Source: an uncultured Eubacteriales bacterium
GTDB taxonomy: Bacteria; Acidobacteriota; Aminicenantia; Aminicenantales; Aminicenantaceae
Assembly: GCA_964429695.1 (NCBI GenBank)
Contig: CAYSCS010000068.1
Coordinates: 15,352 to 79,351 of the forward strand
Reading direction: 5' to 3'
DNA: 64,000 nucleotides
Under the pieces are notes generated by a model. It was not told where the DNA came from. It searched no databases and worked only from the letters and a program-made list of their open reading frames with translations. The position numbers were made by a program, and so were the translations under genes. Shown here in pieces: positions 2,955-44,908 of this stretch; within the stretch, counting starts at the first letter, position 1, and every line of letters starts with the position of its first letter.

Positions 2955-2978
2955 TCTTCTTAAAAGGAAAGTGAAAAA

Positions 2979-3449
2979 TTGAAAATACACAATTTCTTAA
3001 GCCAAGAGATGGTTATACCTGACCTTGTAAGTAGAGATAGAGAGGGTGTTTTGAGGGAAATGGTTCTCTATCTCAAGAAGAAAAACTACGTCTCCAAGGA
3101 AAAACAGCTTTATGAGAAGCTCCTGCAAAGGGAAAATCTGGGAAGCACAGCAATCGCAGATGGAATTGCCATACCTCATTGTAAATTCAAGGGTGTGAAG
3201 AATGCCCTCGTCTTACTTGCCATTTCCAGGCAAGGAGTCAATTTCAATTCTCTGGATGGCAAACCATCTCACCTTTTCTTCCTTGTCATCTCTTCTCCTG
3301 ACAACCCCAGCCTGAATCTCCAGATTCTTGCAGCAATAGCCTGCCTCGTGCGTAAGGCTCCCTCCTTAAGGGAAAAGATACTAGGCGCAGAAAATAAAGA
3401 AATGATTCTTAATATCATCCGCGAGGAAGAAGAAAAAATAGATGAATAA
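2979..3449 (+). CDS. ptsN: PTS EIIA-Ntr (nitrogen regulatory IIA)
   Basis: EIIA type-2 fold with phosphorylatable His in GIAIPHCK. TTG start preceded by AGGAAAG. Position after rpoN-hpf. Confidence 0.8.
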   Translation: MKIHNFLSQEMVIPDLVSRDREGVLREMVLYLKKKNYVSKEKQLYEKLLQRENLGSTAIADGIAIPHCKFKGVKNALVLLAISRQGVNFNSLDGKPSHLFFLVISSPDNPSLNLQILAAIACLVRKAPSLREKILGAENKEMILNIIREEEEKIDE

Positions 3450-4353
3450 TGAAAGTAGTCAATCTTTCGCTGGAAGCAATTTCTACAAGAAATTAAAGAA
3501 ATCCCTTAAGCTTACTCCCGTTGTTGGATTAGCTGAATTTAAGAGAAGACTCAATCTCTATGGGCTGAAAAAATGCTCACTCGGGGTGAAGGTCTGGGGT
3601 AAAAAAGAAATGACGAGACTCGAAGCTCTCTCTACTGAAGAAAAAGAGAGGTTCTTGAGAAGGAGGATGAAAAAGGAAGTTCTCTGCCTTATTGTTGCAG
3701 ACAATCTATCTTTTCTAAAAGAAATCAAGGATGAAGCAAAAAAAAGAGCCATCTCCCTCTTTCTCTCTCCCCTTCCCCAGAAAAAATGTCGTCAGGAACT
3801 CGATGGACTGATTAGGAAATTTTCCCTTCAGACATGCCTGATTTCAGGTGGATTGCTTCAGATTTTCGGCTTGGGAGTTCTCATCATTGGAGATAGCGGG
3901 ATAGGAAAGAGCGAAAGTGCCCTAGAACTCATCTCTAGGGGGCATCTTTTTGTCTCAGATGATGTAGTCTCCATCAAAGTCGTAGAAAACAAGCTATTTG
4001 GAGAAGCTCCTCCCCTCAGTCGATACTTCATGGAGATAAGAGGTCTGGGAATCATCAACATCAGAGAAATCTTCGGCCCCAAGGCGGTGCTGGAGCACAC
4101 AGAAATAAACCTTGTCATCCATCTGAAAAAGTGGGAAAGAGGAAAAGAATATGATAGGCTTGGACTCGAATTTTCAGAAAATTATAAGGTCTTGGAATAC
4201 AATCTTCCCCAGATAAGCATCCCCGTGGCACCGGGAAGAAATATCGCCACTCTGATTGAAGTCGCCTGTAAGGTTCATATCCTGAGAGAAAAGGGATATC
4301 TAGCCTCTAGAGAAATAGATAAAAAATTGAGGCGCGCACTTTCAACACCTTGA
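3442..4353 (+). CDS. hprK: HPr kinase/phosphorylase
   Basis: P-loop GDSGIGKSE and C-terminal HprK signature region (EIRGLGIINIREIFG). Overlaps ptsN by 8 nt. Confidence 0.9.
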   Translation: MNNESSQSFAGSNFYKKLKKSLKLTPVVGLAEFKRRLNLYGLKKCSLGVKVWGKKEMTRLEALSTEEKERFLRRRMKKEVLCLIVADNLSFLKEIKDEAKKRAISLFLSPLPQKKCRQELDGLIRKFSLQTCLISGGLLQIFGLGVLIIGDSGIGKSESALELISRGHLFVSDDVVSIKVVENKLFGEAPPLSRYFMEIRGLGIINIREIFGPKAVLEHTEINLVIHLKKWERGKEYDRLGLEFSENYKVLEYNLPQISIPVAPGRNIATLIEVACKVHILREKGYLASREIDKKLRRALSTP

Positions 4354-5225
4354 AAGAAAAAAAGATTTACCAGGAAAACAGATTCCTCATCATCACCGGT
4401 CTCTCAGGCTCGGGGAAGACCACGGTGAGTCGTTTTCTAGAAGACATGGGATATTATTGTATGGATAATCTCCCCACCAAGCTCATCCCGAATTTTGTAG
4501 ACCTGTGGATGAGAAGAGAGGTGGAAATAGGAAATGTGGCCCTTGTAGTCGACATCCGGGAAGCACGCTTTACGAAAGAATTCCCCAAAGTACTGGAGGA
4601 AATTCGCCAAAAAATTTCCCCAAAAATAATCTTTCTTGAAGCCTCAGATGAAACCCTTGTTAAGAGATTCAAGGAAACGAGAAGGCCACACCCCCTTGCC
4701 AAAAGGAAATCTGTGCTGGAAAGCGTCGCTCTGGAAAGAAAGCGTCTTGAAGGGATAAAGAAGCTGGCGGATGAAGTAATAGATACGACAAACATAAATG
4801 TCTGGGAGTTGAAAAAATTTTTGACCTCAAGGCTTCTAAAAATAAAAGCCCAGAAGCTTCAAATCCTAATCACCAGTTTCGGCTATAAATACGGCATCCC
4901 CTTAGATTCTGACCTTGTCTTCGATACCAGATTCCTACCTAATCCATTTTATATCGACAAGCTAAGAGAAAAGACAGGGAAAAATCCCTCGGTCAAGGCC
5001 TATGTGCTCGAAGCTGAGGAAACCAAGGAATTCCTTGCTGAATTATTCCGTTTTGTTGAGTTTCTCCTGCCTAAATTTATCGAAGAAGGAAAGAGCTTTC
5101 TAAATATCTCCATAGGATGCACAGGGGGGAAGCACAGGGCGGTCGTTCTTGCAGAGGCACTGAAGGATTATCTCAAGGAAAAGAATTTCCCCACAAGAAT
5201 CTACCACCGTGATATCTATAAATAG
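4350..5225 (+). CDS. rapZ: RNase adapter protein RapZ (YhbJ family P-loop protein)
   Basis: N-terminal P-loop GLSGSGKTT and C-terminal IGCTGGKHRAV motif. TTG start overlaps the hprK stop (cTTGAa). Confidence 0.85.
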   Translation: MKEKKIYQENRFLIITGLSGSGKTTVSRFLEDMGYYCMDNLPTKLIPNFVDLWMRREVEIGNVALVVDIREARFTKEFPKVLEEIRQKISPKIIFLEASDETLVKRFKETRRPHPLAKRKSVLESVALERKRLEGIKKLADEVIDTTNINVWELKKFLTSRLLKIKAQKLQILITSFGYKYGIPLDSDLVFDTRFLPNPFYIDKLREKTGKNPSVKAYVLEAEETKEFLAELFRFVEFLLPKFIEEGKSFLNISIGCTGGKHRAVVLAEALKDYLKEKNFPTRIYHRDIYK

Positions 5226-5329
5226 TTCGACTCATAGAAATTCCTCAAACTCAGGTTTAAAACCATGTTTATTCTCTTGCAATTAAGTGGTAAAATACAT
5301 TCAAAAATCAATAATTTGAAAAGCGAAAG

Positions 5330-5734
5330 ATGATTGGCGGAATCATTGTCTCCCACGGAAAGCTGGCAGAAGAACTTCTCAATGCGCTGACCATAATCCT
5401 GGGAGAAGTTGTCAACATCGAAGCGATTTCCATAGGCTGGTATGATGACGTCGAAGAATCAAGAAAAAAGATTAACCAGAGCCTGAAGCGGGTCGACCAG
5501 AAGAATGGAGTGATAATCTTCACTGATATGTTTGGAGGGACTCCTTCCAATCTGAGCTTCAGCTTTTTAAAAGATAATCAAGTTGAAATTATTACTGGTG
5601 TAAATCTGCCCATGCTGATAAAGTTTGTTTCTCTACAGAGGAGCCACAATCTAAAAGAAGTTGCAAGAAAGGTTGTTGAACAGGGCAAGAAGAATATTCA
5701 TCTCGCAAGCGCTCTGCTCAATTCAAAACATTAA
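5330..5734 (+). CDS. PTS EIIA component, mannose/fructose family
   Basis: N-terminus MIGGIIVSHGKLAEEL with the conserved His10 of EIIA-Man; about 134 aa. Confidence 0.75.
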   Translation: MIGGIIVSHGKLAEELLNALTIILGEVVNIEAISIGWYDDVEESRKKINQSLKRVDQKNGVIIFTDMFGGTPSNLSFSFLKDNQVEIITGVNLPMLIKFVSLQRSHNLKEVARKVVEQGKKNIHLASALLNSKH

Positions 5735-8894: not shown

Positions 8895-11378
8895 ATGCGA
8901 CTAAATAACTGGAAAATTATGATTAAGAAATTAACTTTCCCCCTTTTGCTTCAATTCTCTCTCCTCTCTCTTTCCCTCCTTGCCTCGGTAAACCTTTCTC
9001 AGACAGCAAGAGACTCCTTTTTCCCTGCCATTGCGGTAAACTCCTCAGGCGAGGTGATGGTAGTCTGGACAGAATGGGAAGGTGACAACAAGATGTACTA
9101 CCGAATCTTCCGCAATGGCCAATGGTCACAGATCCAAAATGCAGGGATTGTGAAAGAAAGGGCCTGGAGCAATCAGCTTTCTGTCGACTCTTACGGAACC
9201 TTTCACTGGACATGCGCGGATGGCTTCTCATCAGAATCAAGAGATATATATTACAGCTATTTTACAGGAAGTGGATGGGCAGCCGCTGAGATGCTTTATC
9301 GAAGCCCCTATAACTCAGCCTGGAACAAGATGGACATAGACACTAATAACGACATCCATGTCGTCTGGTATCACAGCCATATACCCAAAGGTGATGTCTA
9401 CCAATCAGATATTGTGACCATGGCTAAAAAGAGGATGGGCACCTGGCCCACAAGCTTCGAGTATGTCTCAAACAGCCGCACTCTTGAGTCTATCCACCCA
9501 GCAATCGCCGTTTTAAAAGGGAATGTCTATTGTTGCTGGATGGAGGGAGCAAGCCGTAAGCTTTATTTCAATGAGAAAGTAGGAGGGAGATGGGGTACAC
9601 CAAGAGAGATTGATCCCAGAGGATACTATCCCGACATGGAGGTGGATAGTTCAGGTGATCTTCACATCGTCTTCAGCTCAAGAGCGGGAAATATCTATTA
9701 CTTAACAAGGAGCGGAGGAAAATGGAGGACAAAGCAAATCCTCTCAAATGGAGGGGCTCCCCTTCAATTCCCTGACATCCATGAAAAAAATAATATTCTC
9801 GTTGCGGGCTGGGTCCAGGGACAGGGAGGAAACTGGGCGATTTATGGAGCCACAAAGCTTCCAGGTACCCAGTGGTCAGCACCTTTCAAGGTTTCAAACG
9901 CCCCAGGAGGGGAAGAAGGAAATAAACATGTTCAGGTTTTTCTCGATCAAAACAATTATGCTCATTTTGTCTGGGAACAAATAGGGGTTGGCGGAAAACA
10001 TGATATCTTCTATGAGAAGATTCCCATCCGCGGCGTTGAAGGTCCTTATATTGAAGTCGATAATTCTTATCTTACCTTCCAAACAGATGGCTCATACAAC
10101 CCTGAATCTCAGATCTTTAATCTTAGAGCTGGAGGTAAAGGAAGTTTTAATTATTCCTTATCCTCAAACAGAAGCTGGCTTCATGTCTCACCTAAGGAGG
10201 GGCATTCTCAAGGAGAATGGGACACAATCTCCGTTGAAGTGGATATTATAGGACTTGAAGATGGAACATATAATGGAACAATAACTATTACTGCCTCAGA
10301 AGCCTACAATAGCCCCTACGAAGTAATGGTTTCACTGACAATCGGTGAGCCACAGGGGCCGACCTATCTCGAATTAGACACTCAATCGCTTTCATTCTCT
10401 ACTAAAGAAGGGAGAAACCCCGGCTCACAAGCTTTCAAGCTCAGAGCCACTGGGGGCGCAGCAAGCTATAAAATTTCCACTAACAAAGATTGGCTCCATG
10501 TCTCTCCCCAACAAGGAAGCTCCTCAGGAGAATGGGATGAGATCACTGTCTCTGTGGAATGTGAGAACCTCAAGCATGGAACTCGGAATGGAACAATTAT
10601 CATCGAATCTGAAAAGGCGCAGAATAGCCCCCTTCATATAAGTGTAACTCTGGTGATCGAGAAAAGAGAGCTCCCCTCCATCCAGCTCAGCAGGACGTCC
10701 CTCTATTTCTGGGCCTATGCAAAAGGCGATAACCCTGAACCAAAGACATTTCTCATCAGGAACGGAGGGGCAAAGACTCTCGAGTATGAATTAGAGACAA
10801 ACAAAGAATGGCTTAAACTCTCGCCAAAAAAGGGAAGCTCAAGCGGAGAATGGGATACGATAACTGTCTCTGTAGAGATCTCATCTTTAAATGTGAACAA
10901 TCATACAGGAAAAATCACCATCAGAGCTCAGGGTGCAGATAACAGCCCCCTCTGGGTAAATCTCCAGCTTGAAATCATGCTCCCCCCAAATCCCTATCCT
11001 CCACTTAAAGTCAAGGTGACTAAAATCAACCATGAAGGCCTGATGATAAAAGAATATAAGAACAAAATCGAGTGGGAAGAAAACCCAAAAAATGATGGGC
11101 TTTTTGCAATCGAAAAATACAGAATCTACAGAAAAGACACTTCAGCCCCAGACTCGCCTTTTCTCTATCTGAATGAAGTGCAGGCAAACACCTTCATTTA
11201 TTTTGACGGAGGCTTCTCAACAAAGGCTGAAAGAAATAAATATGCCTATTCAGTTACCTGTTTAAGTTCTGATGGAAAAGAAAGCTTTAGGTCAGAATCT
11301 ATTGATGGGGAAGAAACCCAAGACGAGCCTCCAAAAGAAATAAATAAGAGGAAAGAAGCTTTCCCTCGCAGAAAATAA
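8895..11378 (+). CDS. secreted multidomain protein: signal peptide, beta-propeller-like region (sialidase/BNR_2-like), three BACON-like Ig-fold repeats, FN3-like C-terminal domain
   Basis: SD AAAGGAG precedes the ATG. Hydrophobic signal LTFPLLLQFSLLSLSLLASV. A blade-like motif (P-x-I-A-V-[DN]-x-x-G-x-[IV]-H-[IV]-V-W ... I-Y-Y ... G-x-W) recurs six to seven times. Three ~104-aa repeats carry W-L-[HK]-[VL]-S-P..G.S.GEWD.I.V.VE and NSP. The C-terminal segment (PYPPLKVKV...YRIYRKD...) is FN3-like. Confidence 0.6.
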   Translation: MRLNNWKIMIKKLTFPLLLQFSLLSLSLLASVNLSQTARDSFFPAIAVNSSGEVMVVWTEWEGDNKMYYRIFRNGQWSQIQNAGIVKERAWSNQLSVDSYGTFHWTCADGFSSESRDIYYSYFTGSGWAAAEMLYRSPYNSAWNKMDIDTNNDIHVVWYHSHIPKGDVYQSDIVTMAKKRMGTWPTSFEYVSNSRTLESIHPAIAVLKGNVYCCWMEGASRKLYFNEKVGGRWGTPREIDPRGYYPDMEVDSSGDLHIVFSSRAGNIYYLTRSGGKWRTKQILSNGGAPLQFPDIHEKNNILVAGWVQGQGGNWAIYGATKLPGTQWSAPFKVSNAPGGEEGNKHVQVFLDQNNYAHFVWEQIGVGGKHDIFYEKIPIRGVEGPYIEVDNSYLTFQTDGSYNPESQIFNLRAGGKGSFNYSLSSNRSWLHVSPKEGHSQGEWDTISVEVDIIGLEDGTYNGTITITASEAYNSPYEVMVSLTIGEPQGPTYLELDTQSLSFSTKEGRNPGSQAFKLRATGGAASYKISTNKDWLHVSPQQGSSSGEWDEITVSVECENLKHGTRNGTIIIESEKAQNSPLHISVTLVIEKRELPSIQLSRTSLYFWAYAKGDNPEPKTFLIRNGGAKTLEYELETNKEWLKLSPKKGSSSGEWDTITVSVEISSLNVNNHTGKITIRAQGADNSPLWVNLQLEIMLPPNPYPPLKVKVTKINHEGLMIKEYKNKIEWEENPKNDGLFAIEKYRIYRKDTSAPDSPFLYLNEVQANTFIYFDGGFSTKAERNKYAYSVTCLSSDGKESFRSESIDGEETQDEPPKEINKRKEAFPRRK
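10041..10976 (+). repeat. three tandem ~104-codon BACON-like domain repeats inside the 8895-11378 gene
   Basis: Repeat units start near 10041 (PYIEVDNSYLTF...), 10359 (PTYLELDTQSLSF...) and 10669 (LPSIQLSRTSLYF...). Conserved cores are SWLHVSPKEGHSQGEWDTISV, DWLHVSPQQGSSSGEWDEITV and EWLKLSPKKGSSSGEWDTITV. Confidence 0.75.
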
Positions 11379-11632: not shown

Positions 11633-11686
11633 GGAAAATCACAAAATACTTGAATCAAATTGAAAGCAAAAAAGGAAGTAAAAATT

Positions 11687-14215
11687 ATGCATCTTCTTAA
11701 AAAATATTTTAGTATTCCCATCGAAAAAATAATATTTATTTTGACACTTTTTACCTATCTTTTCTTCATTTTTGCTTTCTTCTCACCTTCGCTACCCAGA
11801 CTCGGTATCTCCTTGCGAGGAGCAAGAGAAGAGTTGTTTTTCCTTCTCCTCTTTCTCTCTTTTCTTTTTTGCTTTCTTAAAAGAAAAAAACTACTTGTGG
11901 CCTTGAAGAAGAAGAAACTAAAAATCGTATCCCTCACCTTTCTCATCATCTCCCTTACCCTACTACTTACTCGACTCCCTTACCTAATCAATGATTTCAG
12001 CCTCTTAAACGCTGACAAATCAGTCACCCTCCTCATGGTTAAGAATATTGCAGAAGGAAAAAGCTTCCCTCTCTACTTTTATGGCCAACTCTACCAGGGA
12101 AGCTTGAATGCCTATCTTACTGCTCTAATCTTTTTTCTCATCCCCTCGTTGAAGATTTCCGTTCTTCTAATAAACATCATCTTTTTCTCCCTGTTTATCC
12201 TCTTTTCCTCCCTTCTCCTTCGTCGGATTACGGATTCAACCTCTTATTTCTATCCTGTTCTCATCCTTTGCCTCCCTCTTTCTGGGTTAGTTTTTTTTTC
12301 GAATGATGAAATAAGGGGATTTTCAGTAGTCGTCTTTTTTGAAATTCTTCTCATTTATCTTGCCTACAGAATCATTTTCGACTCACGTGATTATCATTTC
12401 TCAGTCGGCATGGTCACAGGAGTCCTCTTCTGGCTCTACCAGCCCTCTCTTTCCACAATCCTTCCCATCTATGCGGGAATATTTTTTTCTGAGCTCCGCA
12501 GGAGCCCTCTGCGAAAGTCTCTCTCCAAGGGTATTCTTGCCTTAACAGGGTTTATCGCTGGAAGCTTTCCCCATCTTTTGGGAGAAATTAATAACGAGTT
12601 TACAAACACCAAGGTTCTCTTCTTTTCAGGAGATTTTCCTGCCCATATAAAATCGATGAAGCTCTCTTCCTTACTGTCTGCTCTCAAAGCCTTGCTCTTT
12701 GATTTAGATTCGCAAAGAATCATCTCCCTCTTTTTCATCCTAATTTTCTTTGCAACCATTATTATTTGTTTATGTTTATTCATTAAGAAAAAAGAGACGA
12801 AAAAAATCTTCCTCCCAGCCCTCATGGCAGCAAATCTCTTACTCCTCCTCCTTTCCATGTATCCTCCCGTTCCTCGTTACATCGTTCATTACCGCTTTTT
12901 TTCGTTTTATCCTCTTTTGATCTGCTCAACATTCTTCATGGAATTTAAAATATTCTCAAGAAAAAGATTGAAATTTGCCTTTATCATCTTTTTTGCTTTT
13001 TTCTCTGGATGGAAATCTGTGAAAAATTATCCCATGCTCAGAGAGGCTCATTTCAAGAATAAAAAGGACATCTGCGAACTAAAAGAAGGAAGAGAAAACC
13101 TTATCCTGGGTAATTACTGGGATATGATGAAATACCTTCCTTTCATGGAAGACAAACTCCTCATCTCAACCCCTTCTGAAGTCAGAATCGACGGAGTTTT
13201 TCCTTATGCCAAGTACCTTCCCCTCGGCTTTAAGCTCGGAGAATTCTGGGAGAAAGAAAGTAGAGCTTTTCTGGTGCCAAGGAAGAAAGAGGCTTCGAGC
13301 GAAGAATTTCTCAGGGATTTAGGAATTTCCTTCGCCAAGAAAGAATTTTCTTCTGGACGTTATGCTCTTTATTCGAAATTCTCAAGAGAAATCTCACCTT
13401 ACCTCCTCGTGCTTCTCAATTCTGACCTCAAGAAAAGATGGGAAGGAGGAAAGAGGCCAAATTTCATCTATTTCAAAAATAAACTCCCCTCCCTTCCCGA
13501 GCTAAAGGTAAGGGAGGGGAACCTAATCCTCAATCTTCCAGAATGGGAAGACCTTCCTTCTCAAAGCAGGGGAGCTGAGTTTTTTAAGGATTGGCGGTAT
13601 TGCTTAAAGACAGAGGAAGAAAAGCTAAGCTTCCCTCTCAATCTAAAATCAAGAATAACAGCTTATTCATATCCCCAGCACATTTCACTCCAAGGAAATA
13701 AATACAAAGCCTTCATTAATTTTCTCGATATTCCTATTCTCGAGGCTGGAGAGGTCGAAATTAAGGGGAATTCACCTCAAGCGAAGTTAATCATATCTCG
13801 ACTAAGAGACGCCCTAACCTTCTTCCCCATCTGGGGAAAAGAGAGGAAACCCCGAATTGGAGTCCCCGTAGAAGGGCTTAAACTCGAGGTTGTTAACCCT
13901 TCCGTCGTCTCCATTGAGCTTCGTATTTTTTCCTTTTTTAACTTCGACTCATCCCTCTGGACAAACTTCTATCAGCAGACTCTTCATGTGAATGGGGAAA
14001 AAATCCCGCTTAAATATGGAGAAAACCGGATTCTTAATAAGCTTCACCAAGAAAGAGTAATTAAGTTGAACACAGAATTTAAAACTCTGCTTTATGCTCT
14101 CGATTCCAGAGGAAATGTCACCTTCCCCAATTCTGGGGCAATACTCGAAAGCATTATCCTCCATGAAAAAGGGCAAAGTTACATTCTGAATCCATTTTTA
14201 TCTCCGCTTGAGTGA
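11687..14215 (+). CDS. polytopic membrane protein, GT-C-fold glycosyltransferase-like (ArnT/PMT-like) with a ~400-aa soluble C-terminal domain
   Basis: About a dozen hydrophobic helices over the first ~440 aa. The first loop (LNADKSVTLLMVKNIAEGKSFPLYFYGQLYQGSLNAYL) resembles the ArnT/PMT loop-1 region. ATG 11687 with an SD is preferred over TTG 11660. Confidence 0.5.
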   Translation: MHLLKKYFSIPIEKIIFILTLFTYLFFIFAFFSPSLPRLGISLRGAREELFFLLLFLSFLFCFLKRKKLLVALKKKKLKIVSLTFLIISLTLLLTRLPYLINDFSLLNADKSVTLLMVKNIAEGKSFPLYFYGQLYQGSLNAYLTALIFFLIPSLKISVLLINIIFFSLFILFSSLLLRRITDSTSYFYPVLILCLPLSGLVFFSNDEIRGFSVVVFFEILLIYLAYRIIFDSRDYHFSVGMVTGVLFWLYQPSLSTILPIYAGIFFSELRRSPLRKSLSKGILALTGFIAGSFPHLLGEINNEFTNTKVLFFSGDFPAHIKSMKLSSLLSALKALLFDLDSQRIISLFFILIFFATIIICLCLFIKKKETKKIFLPALMAANLLLLLLSMYPPVPRYIVHYRFFSFYPLLICSTFFMEFKIFSRKRLKFAFIIFFAFFSGWKSVKNYPMLREAHFKNKKDICELKEGRENLILGNYWDMMKYLPFMEDKLLISTPSEVRIDGVFPYAKYLPLGFKLGEFWEKESRAFLVPRKKEASSEEFLRDLGISFAKKEFSSGRYALYSKFSREISPYLLVLLNSDLKKRWEGGKRPNFIYFKNKLPSLPELKVREGNLILNLPEWEDLPSQSRGAEFFKDWRYCLKTEEEKLSFPLNLKSRITAYSYPQHISLQGNKYKAFINFLDIPILEAGEVEIKGNSPQAKLIISRLRDALTFFPIWGKERKPRIGVPVEGLKLEVVNPSVVSIELRIFSFFNFDSSLWTNFYQQTLHVNGEKIPLKYGENRILNKLHQERVIKLNTEFKTLLYALDSRGNVTFPNSGAILESIILHEKGQSYILNPFLSPLE

Positions 14216-14224
14216 AATTCATTC

Positions 14225-16057
14225 TTAGAGGTAACCAAGAGACTTCAAAAGCTCAATCATCTTTTGGTCCGGGACCACCTCTTCGCCCTTCATTTTCAGA
14301 TTATTCGCTCCGGCTTGAATCACATGTTGAAAAAGGGGGATAACCTTCCTCACCTCATATTTTTTCTGCAAATAGAGGTTGAGCCTCTCCTGCGGGTCCT
14401 CAATAAGGTCATAAAATTCATATTCGCTGTAAGGAGGCGGAGGGTTACTAAAGAAGGCAAATGTCTTTTCAGTATAGGGAATGTTATAGATCACTTTTTG
14501 ATTTCTCTGGATTGTGGCTACCTTGAAGGGTAGTTCGGGAATATAGAAGCCGCTGGTAAGAGAAGAAATGAGAGCCCTCTTCTTTACTTTCCCTTTGAGG
14601 AAAAGAGAGAGGTCAATACCATCCACCGCTTTTCTTTCAAAGGGAAGACCGTAGTAATTCAAAACGAAAGGCATGATATCAATCAGACCAACTTCTGACT
14701 CTACAATCTTTCCTGCAAATTTCCCTTTTGGAAACTTGATGATAAGCGGTACGTGAATAAGTTCGTTGTAAAGAGAGTGAACATGCCCCCAACCAGAATG
14801 GTCAAAGAACTCTTCTCCGTGGTCAGAAATCAAGATTATCATCGAGTTCTCATAAAGATTCTTTCTCTTCAAGTACTCAATGAACTCTCCAAACCCGAGA
14901 TCAAAGGTATAAATTTCAGCGTCATAGAGGTCTAAATAAGCCTCTATCATCGCCTGAGGAAGCTCCTTGTACTGGTCTCTGTGTTGAGAGCCAACTGTGG
15001 GAGATGAAAGAGAGGTGAATTGCGGGGATTCGTTGAAAAGCTTCAGGTTTTCCAAAGGAGGGTTGTAAGGGCTATGTGTCTGATAGGTATGAAGGAAGTA
15101 GAAGGAAGAAGGGTTTTTATTTTTTTCAAGGTCGAGGGTAGTCAATTCAAAAAGCCTTTTCGTTGCTTGCGGAGAGAATTGGTCCATCGGGATGCTGTGG
15201 TAGAAATCAAACCCTCTGAAAAACCCAAAAACAGATGAGACATAGATACCACCGTTGAAACTTCGGGTTGAAAACTCTCTCGAAAGCTCTTCAACGAGAT
15301 AGTTGATCCGGGAAGAAATGACTGTTCCCCTTTTCACTCCATGATTGAATTCGTAAAGAGAAGTGAAAAGAGACATATGAGATGGAAGAGTCCAGGGCGC
15401 CTGGGCATATGCATTCTTAAAGACGACACTCTCCCTGGCAAAGGCATCGATATGGGGAGAAGTCTTGCGCTGATAACCATAGGTTTGAAGATGGTCTGCA
15501 CGAAGGGTGTCAGCACAGATAAGAAATATAAGCCTCCTTTCTCCATCTCTCTTTTTTTTAAAAAAAATTGGTTCCCCGATGAGCAAAATCCCCTTCCCCG
15601 CAGCCGCCAGAGTGATTTTATCATCTTTAGCTAATCTTATTTCTTCCCTGATAGAAACAGTATTCTTAGAAGAAATATTTTTTCCACTAAGAAGTGTGCT
15701 ATTCTGGTAAATTTTAACAAGAGAGTTTGTCTTTAAGCCAGAGAGAATCTCAAGGTGAAAAATATACTCTCCTTTAAGCTTGGGCCTAAAGCTTATCTTT
15801 CTCACCCCTTTCTCAAGCCTAAGAAGCTTCCCCCGCAGAGACGTCGACTCAAACTCAAAATAATCAATCCCCCTTACCTGAAAATGCTTGAGATTATTCT
15901 CTTTAAGAAAAGATTCTTCAAAAGAAGAAGATAGAGGCAAAGGAATTCTTCGAAATTCAATCCCTCTCTTCATAAAAGAGAAATAGATAATAAGCGAGAA
16001 GAAAATAAGAAGAAAAGCAAGGACTAATGCTTTCTTCATACGGATTTTATACCACAC
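14225..16057 (-). CDS. membrane-anchored alkaline-phosphatase-superfamily (sulfatase-fold) protein with Thr at the nucleophile position
   Basis: N-terminal TM. A ~150-aa beta-rich spacer domain follows. Metal-site motif LICADTLRADH. T223-LPSHMSLFTS aligns with the C-x-P-S-R-x-x-L-x-T-G sulfatase signature. SDHGEEF is present. C-terminus is LKSLGYL. Alternative start at ATG 16039. Confidence 0.75.
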   Translation of the reverse strand: MWYKIRMKKALVLAFLLIFFSLIIYFSFMKRGIEFRRIPLPLSSSFEESFLKENNLKHFQVRGIDYFEFESTSLRGKLLRLEKGVRKISFRPKLKGEYIFHLEILSGLKTNSLVKIYQNSTLLSGKNISSKNTVSIREEIRLAKDDKITLAAAGKGILLIGEPIFFKKKRDGERRLIFLICADTLRADHLQTYGYQRKTSPHIDAFARESVVFKNAYAQAPWTLPSHMSLFTSLYEFNHGVKRGTVISSRINYLVEELSREFSTRSFNGGIYVSSVFGFFRGFDFYHSIPMDQFSPQATKRLFELTTLDLEKNKNPSSFYFLHTYQTHSPYNPPLENLKLFNESPQFTSLSSPTVGSQHRDQYKELPQAMIEAYLDLYDAEIYTFDLGFGEFIEYLKRKNLYENSMIILISDHGEEFFDHSGWGHVHSLYNELIHVPLIIKFPKGKFAGKIVESEVGLIDIMPFVLNYYGLPFERKAVDGIDLSLFLKGKVKKRALISSLTSGFYIPELPFKVATIQRNQKVIYNIPYTEKTFAFFSNPPPPYSEYEFYDLIEDPQERLNLYLQKKYEVRKVIPLFQHVIQAGANNLKMKGEEVVPDQKMIELLKSLGYL

Positions 16058-17423: not shown

Positions 17424-18188
17424 ATGAATAACCAAAAAGATTTTGAAGAAAAAAGCGTTCATAAAGTACTTCTCAATAAGAAGCAATCTGCTTTAAAAAA
17501 ATATTCCGCTCTCTTTATCGGAAAAGAAAACATCTGGCAGATACTTAAATATGAGCTAATCACCCTTCTTTTCTCCTGGATACCAGGGGCGCTGGGGATA
17601 ATCCTGAGAAGAATCTTCTACCGCCTGATCCTCAAAAAAATTGGAAAAGGAGTGGCACTTGGGCACCACATTACCCTCCGACATCCACATAAAATCTCAA
17701 TCGGAAATAATTCTTTCATAGATGATTATGCGGTACTCGATGCAAAAGGAGAGAAGAATACAGGCATTATCATAGGAGAAAACGTCATCCTCGGACGCAA
17801 TACAATTCTAAGCTGTAAGGGAGGCTCAATTTTTCTTGAAGATTTCTCGAACATCTCTTCAAATTGTTCCCTTCTCTCTGAGACTGAAATAAGAGTGGGA
17901 AAATATACTTTCCTTGCCGGTCATTGTTACCTTGTTGCCGGAGGGAATCACAGCTTTGAACGCACAGACACTCCTATCATGTTTCAACCTTCAATCACAA
18001 AAGGAGGAATCCATATCGCCGAAGATTGCTGGCTTGGAGCCTCTGTGACTGTGCTTGATGGAGTAAGTATAGGAAAAGGGAGTGTAATCGGTGCAGGTTC
18101 TCTCCTCATCGATTCCCTCCCCGAATACTCGGTTGCAGTTGGCTCTCCCGCAAAGAGAATAAGGGATAGAAGAGAAGATAAAGTGTGA
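17424..18188 (+). CDS. hexapeptide-repeat (left-handed beta-helix) acyl/acetyltransferase with N-terminal membrane segment
   Basis: Repeated [LIV]-G-x-x-x-x hexapeptides (IGNNSFIDD, IIGENVILGRN, IAEDCWLGASV, IGKGSVIGAGS), WcaF/LacA-like. Hydrophobic LITLLFSWIPGALGIIL near the N-terminus. Confidence 0.75.
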   Translation: MNNQKDFEEKSVHKVLLNKKQSALKKYSALFIGKENIWQILKYELITLLFSWIPGALGIILRRIFYRLILKKIGKGVALGHHITLRHPHKISIGNNSFIDDYAVLDAKGEKNTGIIIGENVILGRNTILSCKGGSIFLEDFSNISSNCSLLSETEIRVGKYTFLAGHCYLVAGGNHSFERTDTPIMFQPSITKGGIHIAEDCWLGASVTVLDGVSIGKGSVIGAGSLLIDSLPEYSVAVGSPAKRIRDRREDKV

Positions 18189-18241
18189 TAGGTTTTCACC
18201 TTTCTAAAATTTTTTCCTCCAATATATCATCTCTAGTTTAA

Positions 18242-18270
18242 TTGACTAAGGGGTTCATATTCTTTATACT
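18242..18270 (+). promoter_or_regulatory. predicted sigma-70-type promoter (TTGACT / 17 nt / TATACT) for the B12-rSAM/GT2 pair
   Basis: -35 at 18242-18247 and -10 at 18265-18270, read directly. Confidence 0.45.
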
Positions 18271-18302
18271 TTCATCTAACTCGATGCTTATTTAAAGTTA
18301 AG

Positions 18303-19721
18303 ATGAAAGTAATTCTCATCAATCCTCCTGCTGAGAAGCTTGTACGGACTTTTGCCCCGGACTCGATAACAGAAGAAATGGGGTTATACCCTCCTCTGGG
18401 TCTCTTGTATGTGGGAACTCATGCTCTTCAATCACTAAAGAATCAAATTCAACTCCAAATCCTCGATGCTCAGGTTGAGAAAATGAGCAGCAAGAAGATA
18501 GAAAAATTCATAGAAAAAGAAAATCCAGATGTAGTGGGAATCAGCAGTATGACCTTTCTTGTCCTCGATGCCTTGGAAGTGGCGCGCATCGTAAAGAAAA
18601 CCTGTCCTGAAGCTTATGTGGTTGCCGGCGGAATCCATGCCACTATCTATCCCCACGAAATGCTCTCTCAACCCGAAATAGATGCTGTAGTCATCGGAGA
18701 AGGTGAACTCGTTTTCACCCAGCTTCTGGAGGCCCTGTTGAGAAAAAAAGAACTCTCTCAAATCAAAGGTCTTGGATACAAGGTCGATGGAAAAATAATC
18801 ATAAACCAGCAAAATGAGTTTATCAGCAACCTCGATGGCCTGCCCATCCCTGAAAGGACATTACTTCCCTATAAAAAATACTACAACCTTCTTGGGACCG
18901 GTAAAGAAATAATGACCAGCCTCCTGACTTCAAGAGGATGCCCCCACAATTGTATCTTCTGCACTCAGAAGGATGGTCGAATCTGTCGCATGCGTTCCCC
19001 AGAAAATGTTCTCATGGAAATCGAGGCCTGTGTAAGACTTGGAATAACGGATTTCAATGTCGTCGATGATACCTTTACCATCAACCGTAAAAGAGTGATT
19101 GAAATATCAGATCTCATCATTCGCAAGGGATTAAAAATTACCATGGATGTCAATGCTCGAGTTGACCAGGTTGATCAGATGCTTCTCGACAAACTCGCTC
19201 AAGCAGGATGCAACCGAATCCGTTTTGGGGTTGAGAGTGGCAATCCAGAAGTGCTCAAGAACTTAAGAAAGGGGATAACCCTCAATCAGGCAAGAGAGGC
19301 TTTTAGAATGGCAAAAAAGGCTGGCATCGTCACCTTCGCCTATTTCATGGTTGGTTCTCCAGGCGAGACAAAAAAAGAAGTAAAACAAAGCATAAAACTG
19401 GCAAAGGAACTCGACCCGGATTTTGTTCAATTTCTTATCACGACTCCTTTTCCTGCTTCTGACCTGTATGAGCTGGGCAGAGAAAAGGGAATACTCAAGG
19501 GAGACTATTGGAGGGAATTTTCTGCTCATCCTGAGGAAGGGTTTACTCCTCAATGGTGGACTGAAAACTTCACGCCAGGAGAGCTTGAGAAATGGCAGAA
19601 GAGGGCACATCTTAGCTTCTATTATCGCCCAAGGTATATTCTTAGACAGCTACGGAGTTTGAAGTCTCTCAGGGAATTCAAAAGAAAAGCTCATGCAGGT
19701 TTAAGGATATTCTGGGGATAG
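18303..19721 (+). CDS. B12-binding-domain radical SAM protein (class B rSAM)
   Basis: N-terminal cobalamin-binding-like domain (MKVILINPP...PPLGLLYVGT). Radical SAM cluster motif SRGCPHNCIFC (CxxxCxxC). Confidence 0.8.
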   Translation: MKVILINPPAEKLVRTFAPDSITEEMGLYPPLGLLYVGTHALQSLKNQIQLQILDAQVEKMSSKKIEKFIEKENPDVVGISSMTFLVLDALEVARIVKKTCPEAYVVAGGIHATIYPHEMLSQPEIDAVVIGEGELVFTQLLEALLRKKELSQIKGLGYKVDGKIIINQQNEFISNLDGLPIPERTLLPYKKYYNLLGTGKEIMTSLLTSRGCPHNCIFCTQKDGRICRMRSPENVLMEIEACVRLGITDFNVVDDTFTINRKRVIEISDLIIRKGLKITMDVNARVDQVDQMLLDKLAQAGCNRIRFGVESGNPEVLKNLRKGITLNQAREAFRMAKKAGIVTFAYFMVGSPGETKKEVKQSIKLAKELDPDFVQFLITTPFPASDLYELGREKGILKGDYWREFSAHPEEGFTPQWWTENFTPGELEKWQKRAHLSFYYRPRYILRQLRSLKSLREFKRKAHAGLRIFWG

Positions 19722-19722
19722 G

Positions 19723-20421
19723 ATGAAGACCATAAGTGTAATCATACCTGTCTTCAACGAGCAGGATACAATCCTCAAAGTAGTGAGAAAGGTCAAAGAG
19801 GTTCCTATATCCAAAGAAATAATCATCGTCGATGATGCCTCTACCGATAGAACCTCAGAACTGCTGAAGCAACTGGAAAGTGACCCTGAGATAAAGATAA
19901 TTACCCATTCTAAAAACCTCGGTAGGGGAACGGCCATCAGCACAGGCCTCGAACATGCCCAGGGAAAAATTACAATCTTTCAGGATGCTGACCTCGAGCT
20001 TGACCCCGCGAACTATCCTCGATTGATTCAACCTATTCTCGAGGGAGAAACAAAAGTAGTTTTTGGCTCGAGATTCCTAGGAAAAGGATTTATCACAGGG
20101 ATGGGCTTTACCTATTATGTAGGAAATGTCATCCTCACGGCTCTCACCGATCTCCTCTTTAAAAACGCAAGGCTAACCGATGTCTTGACGATGTTCCAGG
20201 TGACAGAAACGCAAATCCTTAAAAGTCTCAATCTTCGAAAGACAAGATGGGAATTTCCAATAGAAATAATGGCAAAGCTGCTGAGGAGGGGATATGATAT
20301 CCTTGAGATTCCGGTGGAATACATCCCGAGGACGAAAAAGTCAGGAAAAAAAATAAACTGGAAAGCATTCTTTCCCTGCCTCTTCACGCTTCTCAAATTC
20401 AGATTTTCAAAAAAGTTCTGA
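19723..20421 (+). CDS. family 2 glycosyltransferase, Dpm1/Ppm1-like (polyprenyl-phosphate sugar synthase-like)
   Basis: ISVIIPVFNEQDTI, IIIVDDASTDRT, and DAD (QDADLE) DxD motif. About 230 aa with no large membrane domain. Starts 2 nt after the rSAM stop. Confidence 0.7.
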   Translation: MKTISVIIPVFNEQDTILKVVRKVKEVPISKEIIIVDDASTDRTSELLKQLESDPEIKIITHSKNLGRGTAISTGLEHAQGKITIFQDADLELDPANYPRLIQPILEGETKVVFGSRFLGKGFITGMGFTYYVGNVILTALTDLLFKNARLTDVLTMFQVTETQILKSLNLRKTRWEFPIEIMAKLLRRGYDILEIPVEYIPRTKKSGKKINWKAFFPCLFTLLKFRFSKKF

Positions 20422-20655
20422 ATAAATTCTCACTGACTCAATCCTCAACCTTCATATTTCACACAATCTCCTGCTTAATTGATAAAAATGTTAATACTTG
20501 ATTTAGTAACTAAAAGATATTATTGAGATAAGCGTGGAATTACCTTTTCCCCTACCATATGCTCATCCGCTAATTTCACGTTTATCAAACTACTTTTTTT
20601 CTCCTTCAATTTAAAAATCAACCGTGAGAGGTAAAAAATAAAGGAAGGGGAAAAG

Positions 20656-22773
20656 TTATCTATAGAAAGCTTCCTTCCTTTGAAGCAAAACCTTATCAAA
20701 CCAGAGCGAAGTCTCTCCTGAAGCATAGATTCTTAGCCCCACAGCTGTTTCTCTCTCAAGATGAAAGCAAAGACTGAATTCCTTATACTTAAAGGAAGAA
20801 TTGAAATCTCTTCCATAAACATCACGGGAAAAAAGAAGCCGTCTTTTTTTAAGATCAAAGACATCAATCTTCGCCAACCACTCACCTGGAGGGGAGGAGT
20901 CCTGAGTTTTCAAGAAAAACAAAGCTTCATATTCTCCTCTTGAAAGGGTAATTGCTTCAGATTGAACAAGAGAGGCTCTTTTTTTCTCGGCTAAAAAAGC
21001 ATACCTATTTGAGGCTTCTTCATCATACCTCGGTATCCCCCCTTCCCCGAAAAATACCTCACCTTCAATGATTTTTTTCTTTCCTTCATCTTCAACCGAA
21101 GAAGGATTAAGCTCATAGAGTTCAACATGGGTTTTCCAGATGGGATAGCGGACAATTAGTCTTGCTCTTCGCATTACGTGGGGAAAATCATTCTGGTAGA
21201 CCTTCTTTTCATCGAAAAAGGGATTGATAATAAGATGTGATATTCGGTATTTAGAGATAAAATCTTTTCCCTTGTTTATATATCCGGTGTGGTAGGAATG
21301 AGCCTCATGCTTGTTCTCCATAGCCATCACCGGAGCCAGAAGACCTCCTATAGACATTTTCTCAAAGGCAAATCCTAAATCTCTCGAATAAGTTCTCAGA
21401 TCAAAACGAGGAAAAAATACCCAGATAAAATATTGCTTAAGGTTAAAGAATAAAGAAATCAAAATGAGTGCTGAAAGTATCACTTTTCTCAGAGAAGGAG
21501 AAAGAAATATTTTCAGTTTCCCTCTCCAGATAGAAAGAAAATAAGCACAGACAAAAGTTAATCCAAAACTGGTTCCAACAAGAAGAATTGAACAGATAGA
21601 AATCGATTTCAAATTCATCGGTTTTAATCCCAGGATAAAGAGACCACTCAAGACAAAAAGAAGCCATAAAAAAAACAGGGGATAAAAGAAAAAAGGAATC
21701 CTCGTTGGTTTTTCAATCGACTTCGCTTTTGAAAACTCAAATAGTGAACCTACGGCAAGGACAACGATGGGAAAGATGAGAGGAATAGCGTGCCTCATTG
21801 GCCTGTAGTAAATAAGCGAATAATGGATGTAATTGCTGATAAGCCAAAGTCCAGATATCCAGAACAGTGGGGTAATTTTTTGGGGGAACCTCAAGTAAAA
21901 ATACAACAAAAAAGGAAGAAAAATTAGAGCAAGAATAGTTTCAACAGGCATATTGTTGAAATAATGAAGGGGTCTTATCCAGAAATTCCTGAGAGCCTCT
22001 GCTACGCCATGGGGTGAAAGCCATTTATAGTTATCTCTTGCTATATCCTGAAATAATTCTTTGTGAGGGAAATAAAAAAAGAAAAAATAAAAGATAGCTA
22101 TGACTCCCATCCCAAGAATAAAAATGCCGCAGAGAGTAAATGTCTTCTTCAGGTTTTTATTGTTTTTAAAAAAAGCATGAATTAGTGCGCCAAAAACAAT
22201 CGAGGGGAGGATGAGGAGGAACGTCCCTTTGACAGTGAAAGAAAGAGAACATGCTCCTCCAGCCAGGAAGTAAAATAATCTTTCTCTTCCTTTTGAAAGC
22301 TCTAAAAAGTAAATCGAAAGAAGGGTAAAGAAGAGCATGGGCATAACTCGGACTGCAATCCTGCTGAACATGGTAAACTGGTAGTTAACTCCAAGAAGTA
22401 GGACTCCAAGGAGAGCGAAATTATTCCCAAGGCTTTTCTTAAGAATGAAATAGAGGAGAAAAAGGAGGAGTGAACTGAAAAGTGCGGGGACAGAGTTCAT
22501 CTGCGCAATCCCCACCCCAAAGAAACGGAAGATAGCATAGGTGATAAGGTGAGAAATTGGAGTGACATACATGAGGTTCCATTCATCTGTTTTCCATTTC
22601 CCAAAAATAACCTTATTCCTCGCATTTGAAACATACTGACCAGGGTCCCCTATGTGTCCAATGCTGTAAGGATCAAGCCTCCGGGGTGGGTCTGCACCCA
22701 AATGGATGAAACGCAGGGAGATAACAAATACAAAAATGAGGAAAAAAACAATGCTCTTCTTCATCTCTTCCAT
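20656..22773 (-). CDS. polytopic membrane protein, GT-C-fold glycosyltransferase-like (GT39/GT83, ArnT/PMT-like) with C-terminal beta-rich domain
   Basis: First loop LGADPPRRLDPYSIGHIGDPGQYVSNARNKVIFGKW matches the ArnT/PMT_2-type loop as I remember it. More than 12 hydrophobic helices. Soluble ~150-aa C-terminus. Confidence 0.6.
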   Translation of the reverse strand: MEEMKKSIVFFLIFVFVISLRFIHLGADPPRRLDPYSIGHIGDPGQYVSNARNKVIFGKWKTDEWNLMYVTPISHLITYAIFRFFGVGIAQMNSVPALFSSLLLFLLYFILKKSLGNNFALLGVLLLGVNYQFTMFSRIAVRVMPMLFFTLLSIYFLELSKGRERLFYFLAGGACSLSFTVKGTFLLILPSIVFGALIHAFFKNNKNLKKTFTLCGIFILGMGVIAIFYFFFFYFPHKELFQDIARDNYKWLSPHGVAEALRNFWIRPLHYFNNMPVETILALIFLPFLLYFYLRFPQKITPLFWISGLWLISNYIHYSLIYYRPMRHAIPLIFPIVVLAVGSLFEFSKAKSIEKPTRIPFFFYPLFFLWLLFVLSGLFILGLKPMNLKSISICSILLVGTSFGLTFVCAYFLSIWRGKLKIFLSPSLRKVILSALILISLFFNLKQYFIWVFFPRFDLRTYSRDLGFAFEKMSIGGLLAPVMAMENKHEAHSYHTGYINKGKDFISKYRISHLIINPFFDEKKVYQNDFPHVMRRARLIVRYPIWKTHVELYELNPSSVEDEGKKKIIEGEVFFGEGGIPRYDEEASNRYAFLAEKKRASLVQSEAITLSRGEYEALFFLKTQDSSPPGEWLAKIDVFDLKKRRLLFSRDVYGRDFNSSFKYKEFSLCFHLERETAVGLRIYASGETSLWFDKVLLQRKEAFYR

Positions 22774-26219: not shown

Positions 26220-27197
26220 TTAGGGCATTCTTTTGGTGATGAACTTCCACAGATATTCCCTCGGGACACCTAAAAAACTTCTCCTCCATACTCTATCACA
26301 TTTTGAGCATGCTTTAAGGAGTTCTATCTGCCCCTCGGCAAGCCTCATCCTCAACTCAATCATCCTTTCCCCATTCCAGATCTTCTTCAGGGATTCATGC
26401 TTGACGTTTCCCAGAATGTAGGCACCAAAAAAATCCTGGGTGCAGGCAAGAACAGAACCATCCCAGAAGACGACAAGCGCATTCCAAGGGAATGGGCAGA
26501 GAGTATATTTCTTTCCCTTCTGCCTCTCTCCCAGGTGCCCGGCCCAGTTGTGCATTTCTTTGGTAACAAACTCATTGAGTGGCAACCCCTTGAAATTATT
26601 TAAAAATTTCTTCTTTTTCTCATCTAAATCTTTTTTCTTGGTAGGCCCAAAACTTATGACTTCAATGGCTGTAACAGGCTTCTTGGACTTTTTCTCTTTC
26701 TTCAACTCAAGGAAACGGATGATGTTTGAGACTGTCTTTTCGAAATCTCCACCCTGACGAATACGCTCATAAGTTTCTTTTTCATACCCATCAAAGGAAA
26801 AGCTCAAGCGGTCGAGACCCGAGCGAATCATTTCGTTCGAGAGCTCTGCATTTAAAAGAGACCCATTGGTGTGGAGGCGCGTAAACATTCCCCTTTTTTT
26901 TGCATAACAAATGGCCTCAATGAGACGGGAATAGAGGAGGGATTCTCCTCTGTGGGCAAGGTTAACCTCGAAGGCAAATTCTCTAGCTTCATCAATGATT
27001 TTTTTTAAAAGCTCAAATTCCATAAATCCTCTATCCTTCTTTTCGAGTTCCCGGTTGGGACACATGATACACCTGTAGTTACAAATGCTTGTTAATTCTA
27101 CCCAGAGTCTTAGAGGAAAGTAAGGGAGATTTTTTGATTTTTTCCAGTAATGGAAGGAAACTTCAACAAGCCTTAACCAGTAAAAAGAGGAGTCCAT
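26220..27197 (-). CDS. radical SAM protein with reduced SPASM/twitch-type C-terminal Cys domain
   Basis: CNYRCIMC (CxxxCxxC). C-terminal C-x12-G-x4-C (CPFPWNALVVFWDGSVLAC) followed only by CSKC, so 4 rather than 7 auxiliary Cys. Confidence 0.75.
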   Translation of the reverse strand: MDSSFYWLRLVEVSFHYWKKSKNLPYFPLRLWVELTSICNYRCIMCPNRELEKKDRGFMEFELLKKIIDEAREFAFEVNLAHRGESLLYSRLIEAICYAKKRGMFTRLHTNGSLLNAELSNEMIRSGLDRLSFSFDGYEKETYERIRQGGDFEKTVSNIIRFLELKKEKKSKKPVTAIEVISFGPTKKKDLDEKKKKFLNNFKGLPLNEFVTKEMHNWAGHLGERQKGKKYTLCPFPWNALVVFWDGSVLACTQDFFGAYILGNVKHESLKKIWNGERMIELRMRLAEGQIELLKACSKCDRVWRRSFLGVPREYLWKFITKRMP

Positions 27198-34629: not shown

Positions 34630-34660
34630 ACGTCCTAAATTTTGAATGGAGGTCAAGAAA

Positions 34661-41020: not shown

Positions 41021-41023
41021 CTT

Positions 41024-41575: not shown

Positions 41576-41681
41576 TCGTCCTCCAAAATAAATGGGTTTA
41601 ATTTTTTCGTCCTCTTTATACCGTTTAATTCTCCTTCTGTCAATAGATATACTTAAATAATTCGCTTGAAAATCCGATTTC

Positions 41682-44866: not shown

Positions 44867-44879
44867 GATTTCTAAGGCA

Positions 44880-44908
44880 AAATTAACACACACCCGGATT
44901 ATTGTCAA
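44880..44908 (-). promoter_or_regulatory. predicted sigma-70-type promoter (TTGACA / 17 nt / TGtTAATTT) for the tol-pal operon
   Basis: Reverse complement reads TTGACAataatccgggtgtgtgtTAATTT. The -10 ends 13 nt before ATG 44866, and there is no SD. Confidence 0.45.

Follow-up and report, generated by a model that had tools for sequence, protein, structure and literature searches.

Three sulfatase-like proteins of an Aminicenantales bacterium carry threonine at the formylglycine position and probably act in phosphoryl transfer

The DNA analysed here, referred to as the window, is a stretch of 64,000 nucleotides from an uncultured Eubacteriales bacterium that GTDB places in the Acidobacteriota (Aminicenantia; Aminicenantales; Aminicenantaceae), and corresponds to positions 15,352 to 79,351 of contig CAYSCS010000068.1 in assembly GCA_964429695.1. 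It carries three genes, designated S1, S2 and S3, whose products belong to the Pfam Sulfatase family (PF00884) and have threonine at the position of the formylglycine residue of sulfatases. A phmmer sweep of all open reading frames (ORFs) of at least 80 amino acids found exactly these three PF00884 proteins. S1 (14225-16057, minus strand) is an ORF of 610 residues, with a catalytic domain at residues 176-470, a SGSH_C-type C-terminal subdomain and, upstream of both, an extracytoplasmic N-terminal domain (residues 28-174; 15536-15976, minus strand) that is predicted by AlphaFold2 to form a beta-sandwich jelly roll. S2 (29458-30798, minus strand; 446 residues) consists of a leader followed only by the catalytic domain and C-terminal subdomain. 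In S3 (31181-33085, plus strand; 634 residues), a putative signal anchor precedes an N-terminal domain of ca. 160 residues (31298-31774, plus strand), the catalytic domain and the C-terminal subdomain.

Scores against PF00884 are 118.5, 169.3 and 120.3 bits for S1, S2 and S3, respectively (gathering threshold 25 bits; E-values 4.7e-34, 1.6e-49 and 1.4e-34), and each protein has weaker Pfam matches to Phosphodiest and SGSH_C. In phmmer comparisons the three score 112-134 bits with one another versus 75-89 bits with any solved sulfatase. Database names for such proteins are "arylsulfatase A-like enzyme", "choline-sulfatase" and "sulfatase". In the ORF list, S1 begins with a GTG codon (within 16039-16057, minus strand), the identical database protein has 604 residues, and the true start is probably the ATG of Met7. 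Because the database protein starts there, the residue numbers given for S1 may be too high by 6, with the coordinates unchanged.

The N-termini of S1 and S3 comprise a basic stretch and then 18-20 hydrophobic residues with no obvious cleavage site, and look like signal anchors. The leader of S2 is short, of the signal or lipoprotein type, and ends in Cys21, the consensus residue of its column among S2 homologues; no spacer domain follows. A preliminary description of this DNA had given all three proteins a single transmembrane anchor and a beta-rich spacer; an anchor and an extra N-terminal domain are found in S1 and S3, and the description fails for S2, which has neither. Its remark that a five-transmembrane domain of the LtaS/EptA type is missing applies to all three, each of which has one hydrophobic segment only. 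An N-terminal hydrophobic leader occurs in ca. 85% of the sampled S1 and S2 homologues and ca. 70% of the S3 representatives, with lipobox-like motifs in a fraction of them, as expected of export, so that S1-S3 and their family are predicted to be exported proteins. The model of the S1 N-terminal domain (pLDDT 91) has weak Foldseek matches to CBM6, CBM36, CBM16, BcsB and Cry toxin structures (E ca. 1e-4, TM-scores 0.41-0.49), which suggests, not strongly, that it may bind glycans. HHalign detected no similarity between this jelly roll and the N-terminal domain of S3 (probability 0.07%); the latter is conserved in close S3 relatives.

The position of the nucleophile could be assigned in all three proteins. 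In S1, the codons at 15377-15394 (minus strand) translate as W-T-L-P-S-H, with T223 (ACT, 15389-15391) at the formylglycine position and H227 (15377-15379) at that of the signature Arg. The corresponding motifs are T79-S-A-S-I83 in S2 (30550-30564, minus strand; T79 is ACT, 30562-30564) and T255-W-P-A-L259 in S3 (31943-31957, plus strand; T255 is ACC, 31943-31945), with Ile and Leu, respectively, at the Arg position. The codon coordinates that had been assigned to the three threonines are exact. In phmmer alignments to solved sulfatases and phosphonate monoester hydrolases (PMHs), namely BT1918 (7oz8), 6hr5, the Enterococcus arylsulfatase EfAS (9koq) and the PMH/arylsulfatase set 4upk, 4upi, 4uph and 2vqr, the formylglycine Cys, or the Ser engineered in its place in mutant crystals, is aligned with T223, T79 and T255, and the signature Arg with H227, I83 and L259. 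When 56 S2 homologues were combined into a profile, the register did not change and the nucleophile column was Thr; Cys or Ser in that column had been named beforehand as a result that would overturn the assignment. Pairwise and profile alignments thus agree that Thr stands in place of Cys/Ser and that the signature Arg is missing in all three proteins. The formylglycine signature C/S-x-P/A-x-R is replaced at the aligned positions by T-L-P-S-H, T-S-A-S-I and T-W-P-A-L, and a motif scan found no C/S-x-P/A-x-R, and hence no C/S-x-P-x-R as noted previously, anywhere in S1, S2 or S3. Each protein contains one Cys, never at the nucleophile position. The motifs D-x-x-R-x-D and SDHGE, reported as intact, are each present once per protein.

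This arrangement extends to a large family. Among S2 homologues (41-67% identity) Thr is found in 119/119 sequences, within the motif P-K-T-S-A-S, and the residue at +4 is F, L, I or V. S1 homologues (33-61% identity) have W-T in 119/119 cases, with His at +4 in 76 and Phe in 42. For S3, an index-free HMMER search covered 1.84 billion sequences, each representing a cluster at 50% identity, and 149 representatives (28-51% identity to S3) with 159 domains were examined, some of them multidomain proteins as long as 1,549 amino acids; Thr occurs in 158 of the 159 aligned domains and Ser in one, and +4 is never Arg. The PF00884 ORFs in 80 genome loci, obtained by scanning species-representative genomes, the matched ORF of each locus being 28-58% identical to S2, have Thr in 119 of 120 cases and again no Arg at +4. 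The genome-scan set is partly biased, as one of its three scan patterns held the Thr motif; the search of the representatives is unbiased. Taking the sets together, Arg never occupies +4, where the residues found are H, F, L, I, V and M. S3 alone retrieves 787 clusters at 50% identity (E <= 1e-30), and at least 566 relatives were found in species-representative genomes of Acidobacteriota (Aminicenantes, Thermoanaerobaculia, Vicinamibacteria and Terriglobia), Planctomycetota, Myxococcota, Gemmatimonadota, KSB1 and others. The Asp, the Asp-His pair, the Thr and two His are invariant even across sequences only 28-30% identical, a pattern that points to selection on an active site, the Thr included.

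Formylglycine sulfatases and PMHs of SulfAtlas family S1 (a label independent of the protein S1) are the best sequence matches, with E-values of 1e-20 to 1e-24, and include choline sulfatase, BT1918 (7oz8), EfAS (9koq) and the Rhizobium/Agrobacterium PMHs (2vqr, 4uph). They share with S1-S3 the two-domain fold with its SGSH_C subdomain, the first-strand Asp in D-x-x-R-x-D and the general-acid His in an x-H-x-P-Y-x-P-P motif, and the D-H-G metal pair is as in PMH and EfAS. S1-S3 differ from them in having Thr for the Cys/Ser precursor, a His or hydrophobic residue for the Arg at +4, no GK-x-H loop, and His for the Lys located 12 residues after D-H. In EfAS, residues D20, Q21, C61, R65, K110, H112, H220, D311, H312 and K324 are essential by mutagenesis (PMC12421950). 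Of these, D20 (D39 in S2), H220 (H187) and D311/H312 (D268/H269) are kept. Q21 corresponds to A40 in S2 and to Ala or Thr across S1-S3, C61 to T79, and R65 to I83 (Ile, His or Leu across S1-S3); the loop with K110 and H112 is absent, the "gkyg" of 6hr5 being an insertion relative to the family profile, and K324 gives way to an adjacent invariant His (H282 in S2). No Lys is found within 15-20 residues after DHGE in S1, S2 or S3, and the sulfate-binding set (Lys and His of the G-K-x-H loop, Lys after D-[NH]-G) is lacking in the three proteins. In these alignments the metal site and the general-acid His are thus retained, whereas the three cationic residues responsible for holding sulfate and the aldehyde hydrate have all been lost.

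The residues that remain are strongly conserved. For the metal/phosphate site of S1, D412-H413-G-E...H425 (14783-14824, minus strand), with H425 in place of the sulfatase Lys, an alignment of 121 sequences shows D, H, G and H425 to be conserved in no fewer than 119 sequences each. The columns of D268-H269-G-E...H282 in S2 (29953-29997, minus strand) are invariant among its homologues, as are those of H187 (30238-30240, minus strand) and D39 (30682-30684, minus strand), which complete the catalytic set. For S3, D432-H433-G-E...H446 (32474-32518, plus strand), the alignment of representatives gives DHG in 157-159 of 159 domains; of the 158 domains that are ungapped at H446, 152 have His. An internal control is provided by the syntenic island of a close relative (locus L001, GCA_964400735.1), in which three of four PF00884 genes are of the Thr type and the fourth encodes a Cys-type sulfatase (2449-3834, minus strand) with textbook DDQ, C-V-A-S-R, GKSH and DNG...K motifs. 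The Cys-type protein scores 35-91 bits with S1-S3, versus 90-206 bits for the Thr-type proteins and 659 bits for the direct S2 orthologue. A counterpart of this Cys-type gene does not occur in the window.

When the family profiles were aligned with E. coli K-12 EptA by HHalign, D39 of S2 and D183 of S1 paired with E244, and T79 and T223 with T282; in S2, H187 paired with H385, D268 with D455, H269 with H456 and H282 with H468 (probability 94.6% for the alignment with these four pairs). EptA T282 is the second Thr of C-G-T-A-T-A-V-S and the equivalent of MCR-1 T285. The invariant D/T/H/D-H/H set of the family maps onto the catalytic set of EptA, and therefore represents the same constellation as in phosphoethanolamine transferases. 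For EptA, MCR-1 and EptC, whose active site faces the periplasm, the catalytic E/D, T, H, D-H and H align position by position with S1-S3. Unlike these enzymes, S1-S3 have no five-transmembrane N-terminal domain (NCBIfam scores of 16-50 bits against cut-offs of at least 500), no disulfides, with one Cys each, and an extra C-terminal subdomain of the sulfatase type. Overall similarity to EptA/MCR is far weaker than to the sulfatases: full-length queries did not reach them among the PDB matches listed, and a search of the PDB with an S2 fragment yielded 4tn0 at E 7e-6. Sub-threshold, weak local NCBIfam matches to the EptA, CptA, MCR, LtaS and YejM models cover the same two segments.

S1-S3 were also compared with other enzymes that use a Thr nucleophile. 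LtaS and OpgB have the PF00884 domain, the Thr nucleophile, a metal bound via D/E, T and D-H and an extracytoplasmic catalytic domain, as is proposed for S1-S3, but also multi-transmembrane domains and lipid donors that S1-S3 lack; membership in the LtaS family is not indicated, as only S1 gives a marginal NCBIfam match (20.6 bits against a cut-off of 970, E 1e-4). The nucleophile motif of S1-S3 resembles the motif of the nucleotide pyrophosphatases/phosphodiesterases (NPPs), T-[FW]-P-x-[HL]-x-S-[IL]-x-T-G-x-Y-P-x-x-H-G. PF01663 (NPP/autotaxin) is matched with 38-42 bits (cut-off 23 bits), far below PF00884, and the matches of S2 and S3 span only the N-terminal 50-60 residues; the overall fold subclass of NPPs differs, and the residues of their bimetallic Zn site (D-x-x-x-H and H) were not identified in S1-S3.

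The AlphaFold2 model of S2, based on an alignment of 56 sequences, has a mean pLDDT of 93.2 and a pTM of 0.90. In a Foldseek search of the PDB its best 50 matches are all S1-family sulfatases, choline sulfatases or PMHs (TM-scores 0.63-0.72), with no LtaS, EptA or NPP structure among these 50. This model with its Foldseek matches, and likewise the SGSH_C matches, show a two-domain alpha/beta fold whose C-terminal subdomain is a beta-sheet, and the predicted scaffold of S1-S3 is of the sulfatase/PMH type rather than that of a truncated LtaS or EptA.

Taken together, the sequences indicate that S1-S3 and their large multi-phylum family are almost certainly not sulfatases: they have no Cys or Ser to oxidise, no Arg for the formylglycine hydrate, and neither the sulfate-binding Lys pair nor the His of the GK-x-H loop. 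Formylglycine is needed for turnover of sulfate esters, and a Thr-O-sulfate intermediate would have no efficient route of turnover. S1-S3 are probably exported metallo-enzymes in which a sulfatase/PMH fold bears the Thr catalytic set of phosphoryl transfer known from EptA/MCR and LtaS. The view of the preliminary description that these are not formylglycine sulfatases and that Thr points to phosphoryl transfer is supported by the Thr column, the lack of Arg at +4, the loss of both sulfate-binding Lys and of the loop His, and the mapping onto EptA.

In the mechanism that we infer, a divalent metal would be coordinated by the Asp (D183, D39 and D209 in S1, S2 and S3, respectively), by the hydroxyl of the Thr and by the Asp and His of SDHGE, and would activate Thr223, Thr79 or Thr255 as an alkoxide. 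Attack of this alkoxide on a phosphate ester would give a covalent phospho-Thr intermediate. The invariant His pair (H328/H187/H352 and H425/H282/H446) may protonate the leaving group and serve as ligands of the phosphoryl oxygens or of a second metal, and the intermediate would be resolved by water or, less likely, by a glycan hydroxyl. Tentatively, and with chances a little below even, the proteins would work in the periplasm as hydrolases that cleave phosphodiesters or phosphomonoesters carried by glycans or lipid head-groups. The CBM-like (carbohydrate-binding module) jelly roll of S1 and the stand-alone, often tandem genes found across phyla also lean towards a hydrolase.

Several points weigh against the assignment to phosphoryl transfer. 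True sulfatases, and not any Thr enzyme, are nearest to S1-S3 in overall sequence and fold, so that the argument rests on few catalytic positions, and in pairwise alignments the site at which His replaces Lys is defined only to within one residue. Searches of the literature, of PDB sequences and of folds returned no characterised or structurally solved member of a sulfatase-fold Thr clade, and none is known to us. The local gene context, with GT-C and GT2 (glycosyltransferase), acyltransferase and carbamoyltransferase genes, would suit biosynthesis no less than hydrolysis.

A biosynthetic role would be a particular case of the same Thr mechanism, in which S1-S3 act as periplasmic transferases that move phosphoethanolamine, phosphoglycerol or phosphocholine onto the lipopolysaccharide, capsule or glycoprotein glycans of their own cell. 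This possibility, considered rather unlikely, is favoured by a catalytic set identical to that of EptA and by the gene island around S1-S3. The island encodes two BACON-domain proteins and two large membrane proteins, GT-C-like, of which one is PMT_2/GT-C and one has no family match, together with a GT2, a hexapeptide acyltransferase, a B12-radical-SAM (S-adenosylmethionine) enzyme, an epimerase, a carbamoyltransferase, an amidohydrolase, a PD40 propeller and an outer-membrane beta-barrel protein (OMP_b-brl), the counterparts of the latter at L001 and at a further related locus, L006, also having an AMIN domain. Parts of it are common to close relatives. At 17424-22773 lie the hexapeptide acyltransferase, the B12-binding radical-SAM protein (BchE/HpnJ-like, below cut-off), the GT2 of 232 amino acids and the PMT_2 GT-C; the matching set at L006 includes, in addition, genes for a formyltransferase and a polysaccharide deacetylase, and resembles an Arn-type periplasmic glycan-modification pathway. 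An S1 homologue adjoins this Arn-like GT2/PMT_2/deacetylase/formyltransferase set at L006, and another, 35% identical to S1 (L007), lies within a GT9/GT2/GT4/methyltransferase operon in which stop and start codons overlap.

Against the transferase stands the lack of a multi-transmembrane domain, present in EptA, LtaS, OpgB, BcsG and GacH, by which a lipid donor could be reached; because this lipid-binding domain is missing, hydrolysis is likelier than transfer from a lipid donor. Of the single-transmembrane phospho-group transferases or hydrolases previously proposed, the phosphoryl-transfer part is therefore retained and the lipid-donor transferase becomes the less likely of the two. The CBM-like domain of S1 is more typical of degradative enzymes. 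No conserved partner gene accompanies the family either: when all neighbouring ORFs in the 80 loci from several phyla were clustered, the only recurrent neighbour was a PF00884 paralogue (129 copies in 72 loci, often in tandem), and a conserved operon partner was accordingly rejected. Because only these paralogues recur, the link to envelope glycans is local to some lineages and not family-wide, and the earlier statement that the proteins act on an envelope polymer, which derives solely from the local gene context in Aminicenantes, is not upheld. A TonB-dependent-receptor-like protein and an ABC-transporter ATPase are found in 7-8 of the 80 loci each, a hint that in some lineages the family may be catabolic and linked to uptake.

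Other genes of the island are less directly related to this question. The gene of the PD40 beta-propeller protein (28515-29465, minus strand) overlaps the stop codon of S2 and is the only S2 neighbour that also adjoins a close S2 orthologue. An ORF of 851 amino acids with a TTG start (11660-14215, plus strand) is convergent with S1 and ends 10 bp from the S1 stop; its translation has a very hydrophobic N-terminal half and a C-terminal half that looks soluble, and has no match in Pfam or NCBIfam. From these features it may be a divergent GT-C-type glycosyltransferase. The two large BACON/BACON_2-domain proteins are encoded at 8895-11378 and 34646-36460 (plus strand). BACON domains are usually discussed for Bacteroidota; equivalents of these proteins adjoin Thr-type genes in the relatives L001 and L006. 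The region is chromosomal and flanked by ordinary housekeeping clusters, with rpoN-hpf-ptsN-hprK-rapZ at 967-5734 on one side and, at 40157-44908 on the other, a Tol-Pal cluster encoding TolQ, TolR, a TolA-like protein with a TonB_C domain, TolB, an OmpA-family Pal-like protein and a TPR protein. The presence of Tol-Pal genes implies that the organism is diderm.

S1-S3 could also be pseudo-enzymes, that is, catalytically dead binding proteins that retain the sulfatase fold. Key sulfatase residues are indeed lost and the genes have been amplified into paralogue arrays, but the metal ligands, the Thr and the two His are those that stay invariant at 28-30% identity, which implies selection on the active site and makes this alternative improbable.

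The window contains a gene for a radical-SAM/SPASM protein of 325 amino acids (26220-27197, minus strand) that ends a same-strand run of S2, the PD40 gene, an SDF symporter gene and itself. Anaerobic sulfatase-maturating enzymes (anSMEs) belong to the radical-SAM/SPASM class. Its best NCBIfam match, far below cut-off, is a maturase of a tungsten-cofactor oxidoreductase, and its only PDB match is the twitch region of BtrN. The gene is absent beside S2 orthologues, and its closest homologues in other loci (L018 and L028) adjoin solute-binding proteins of the SBP_bac_11 family. A function as an anSME-like maturase of the Thr was consequently rejected, and its co-orientation with S2 is treated as coincidental. 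No formylglycine-generating enzyme (FGE) domain was found among the ca. 40 ORFs scanned, within 64 kb of genome. The authors of SulfAtlas noted that oxidation of Thr would yield a ketone (PMC5066984). Under such a scheme a radical-SAM dehydrogenase would oxidise the invariant Thr to 2-amino-3-oxobutyrate, the hydrate of which would be a "methyl-formylglycine"; if this were true, it would represent an unseen protein-derived cofactor and a new class of sulfatase or phosphonatase, but it is the least credible of the proposals considered here. That S1-S3 are true sulfatases at all, using either such a ketone or an unmodified Thr, is highly improbable in spite of their fold, their best sequence matches, the retained general-acid His and the radical-SAM gene downstream of S2, given that the Arg and both Lys for sulfate and aldehyde hydrate are lost family-wide and that neither an anSME-like protein nor an FGE was found among the ORFs scanned.

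That Thr proteins are mixed with true sulfatases in PF00884 is already known, since 30 of the 59 seed sequences of PF00884 were reported in 2016 to carry Thr, with an uncharacterised TxNxE-motif set as the example (PMC5066984). The TxNxE-motif proteins look LtaS-like, and the S1-S3 clade differs from them in being closest to formylglycine sulfatases and PMHs, in keeping the C-terminal subdomain and in having no multi-transmembrane domain. The NCBIfam model "manganese-dependent arylsulfatase", considered as a possible Thr-type precedent, corresponds to the Cys-type EfAS of Enterococcus. With roughly even odds, the clade may be a so far uncharacterised link, spanning several phyla, from formylglycine sulfatases/PMHs to phosphotransferases of the EptA/LtaS type.

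These data indicate that a large Thr-type clade is named sulfatase in databases, and PF00884 counts would therefore inflate the degradation of sulfated glycans and the cycling of organic sulfur inferred for the phyla concerned; checking for C/S-x-P/A-x-R would remove such false-positive sulfatases from the counts. With a sulfatase/PMH scaffold and an EptA-type catalytic set, the family would also offer a natural test case for the switch of nucleophile and charge in the alkaline-phosphatase superfamily. Finally, if their substrates are phosphorylated glycans or lipid head-groups, S1-S3 and their relatives would be candidate periplasmic phosphodiesterases in uncultured sediment bacteria, where they may serve in phosphorus scavenging or envelope remodelling.

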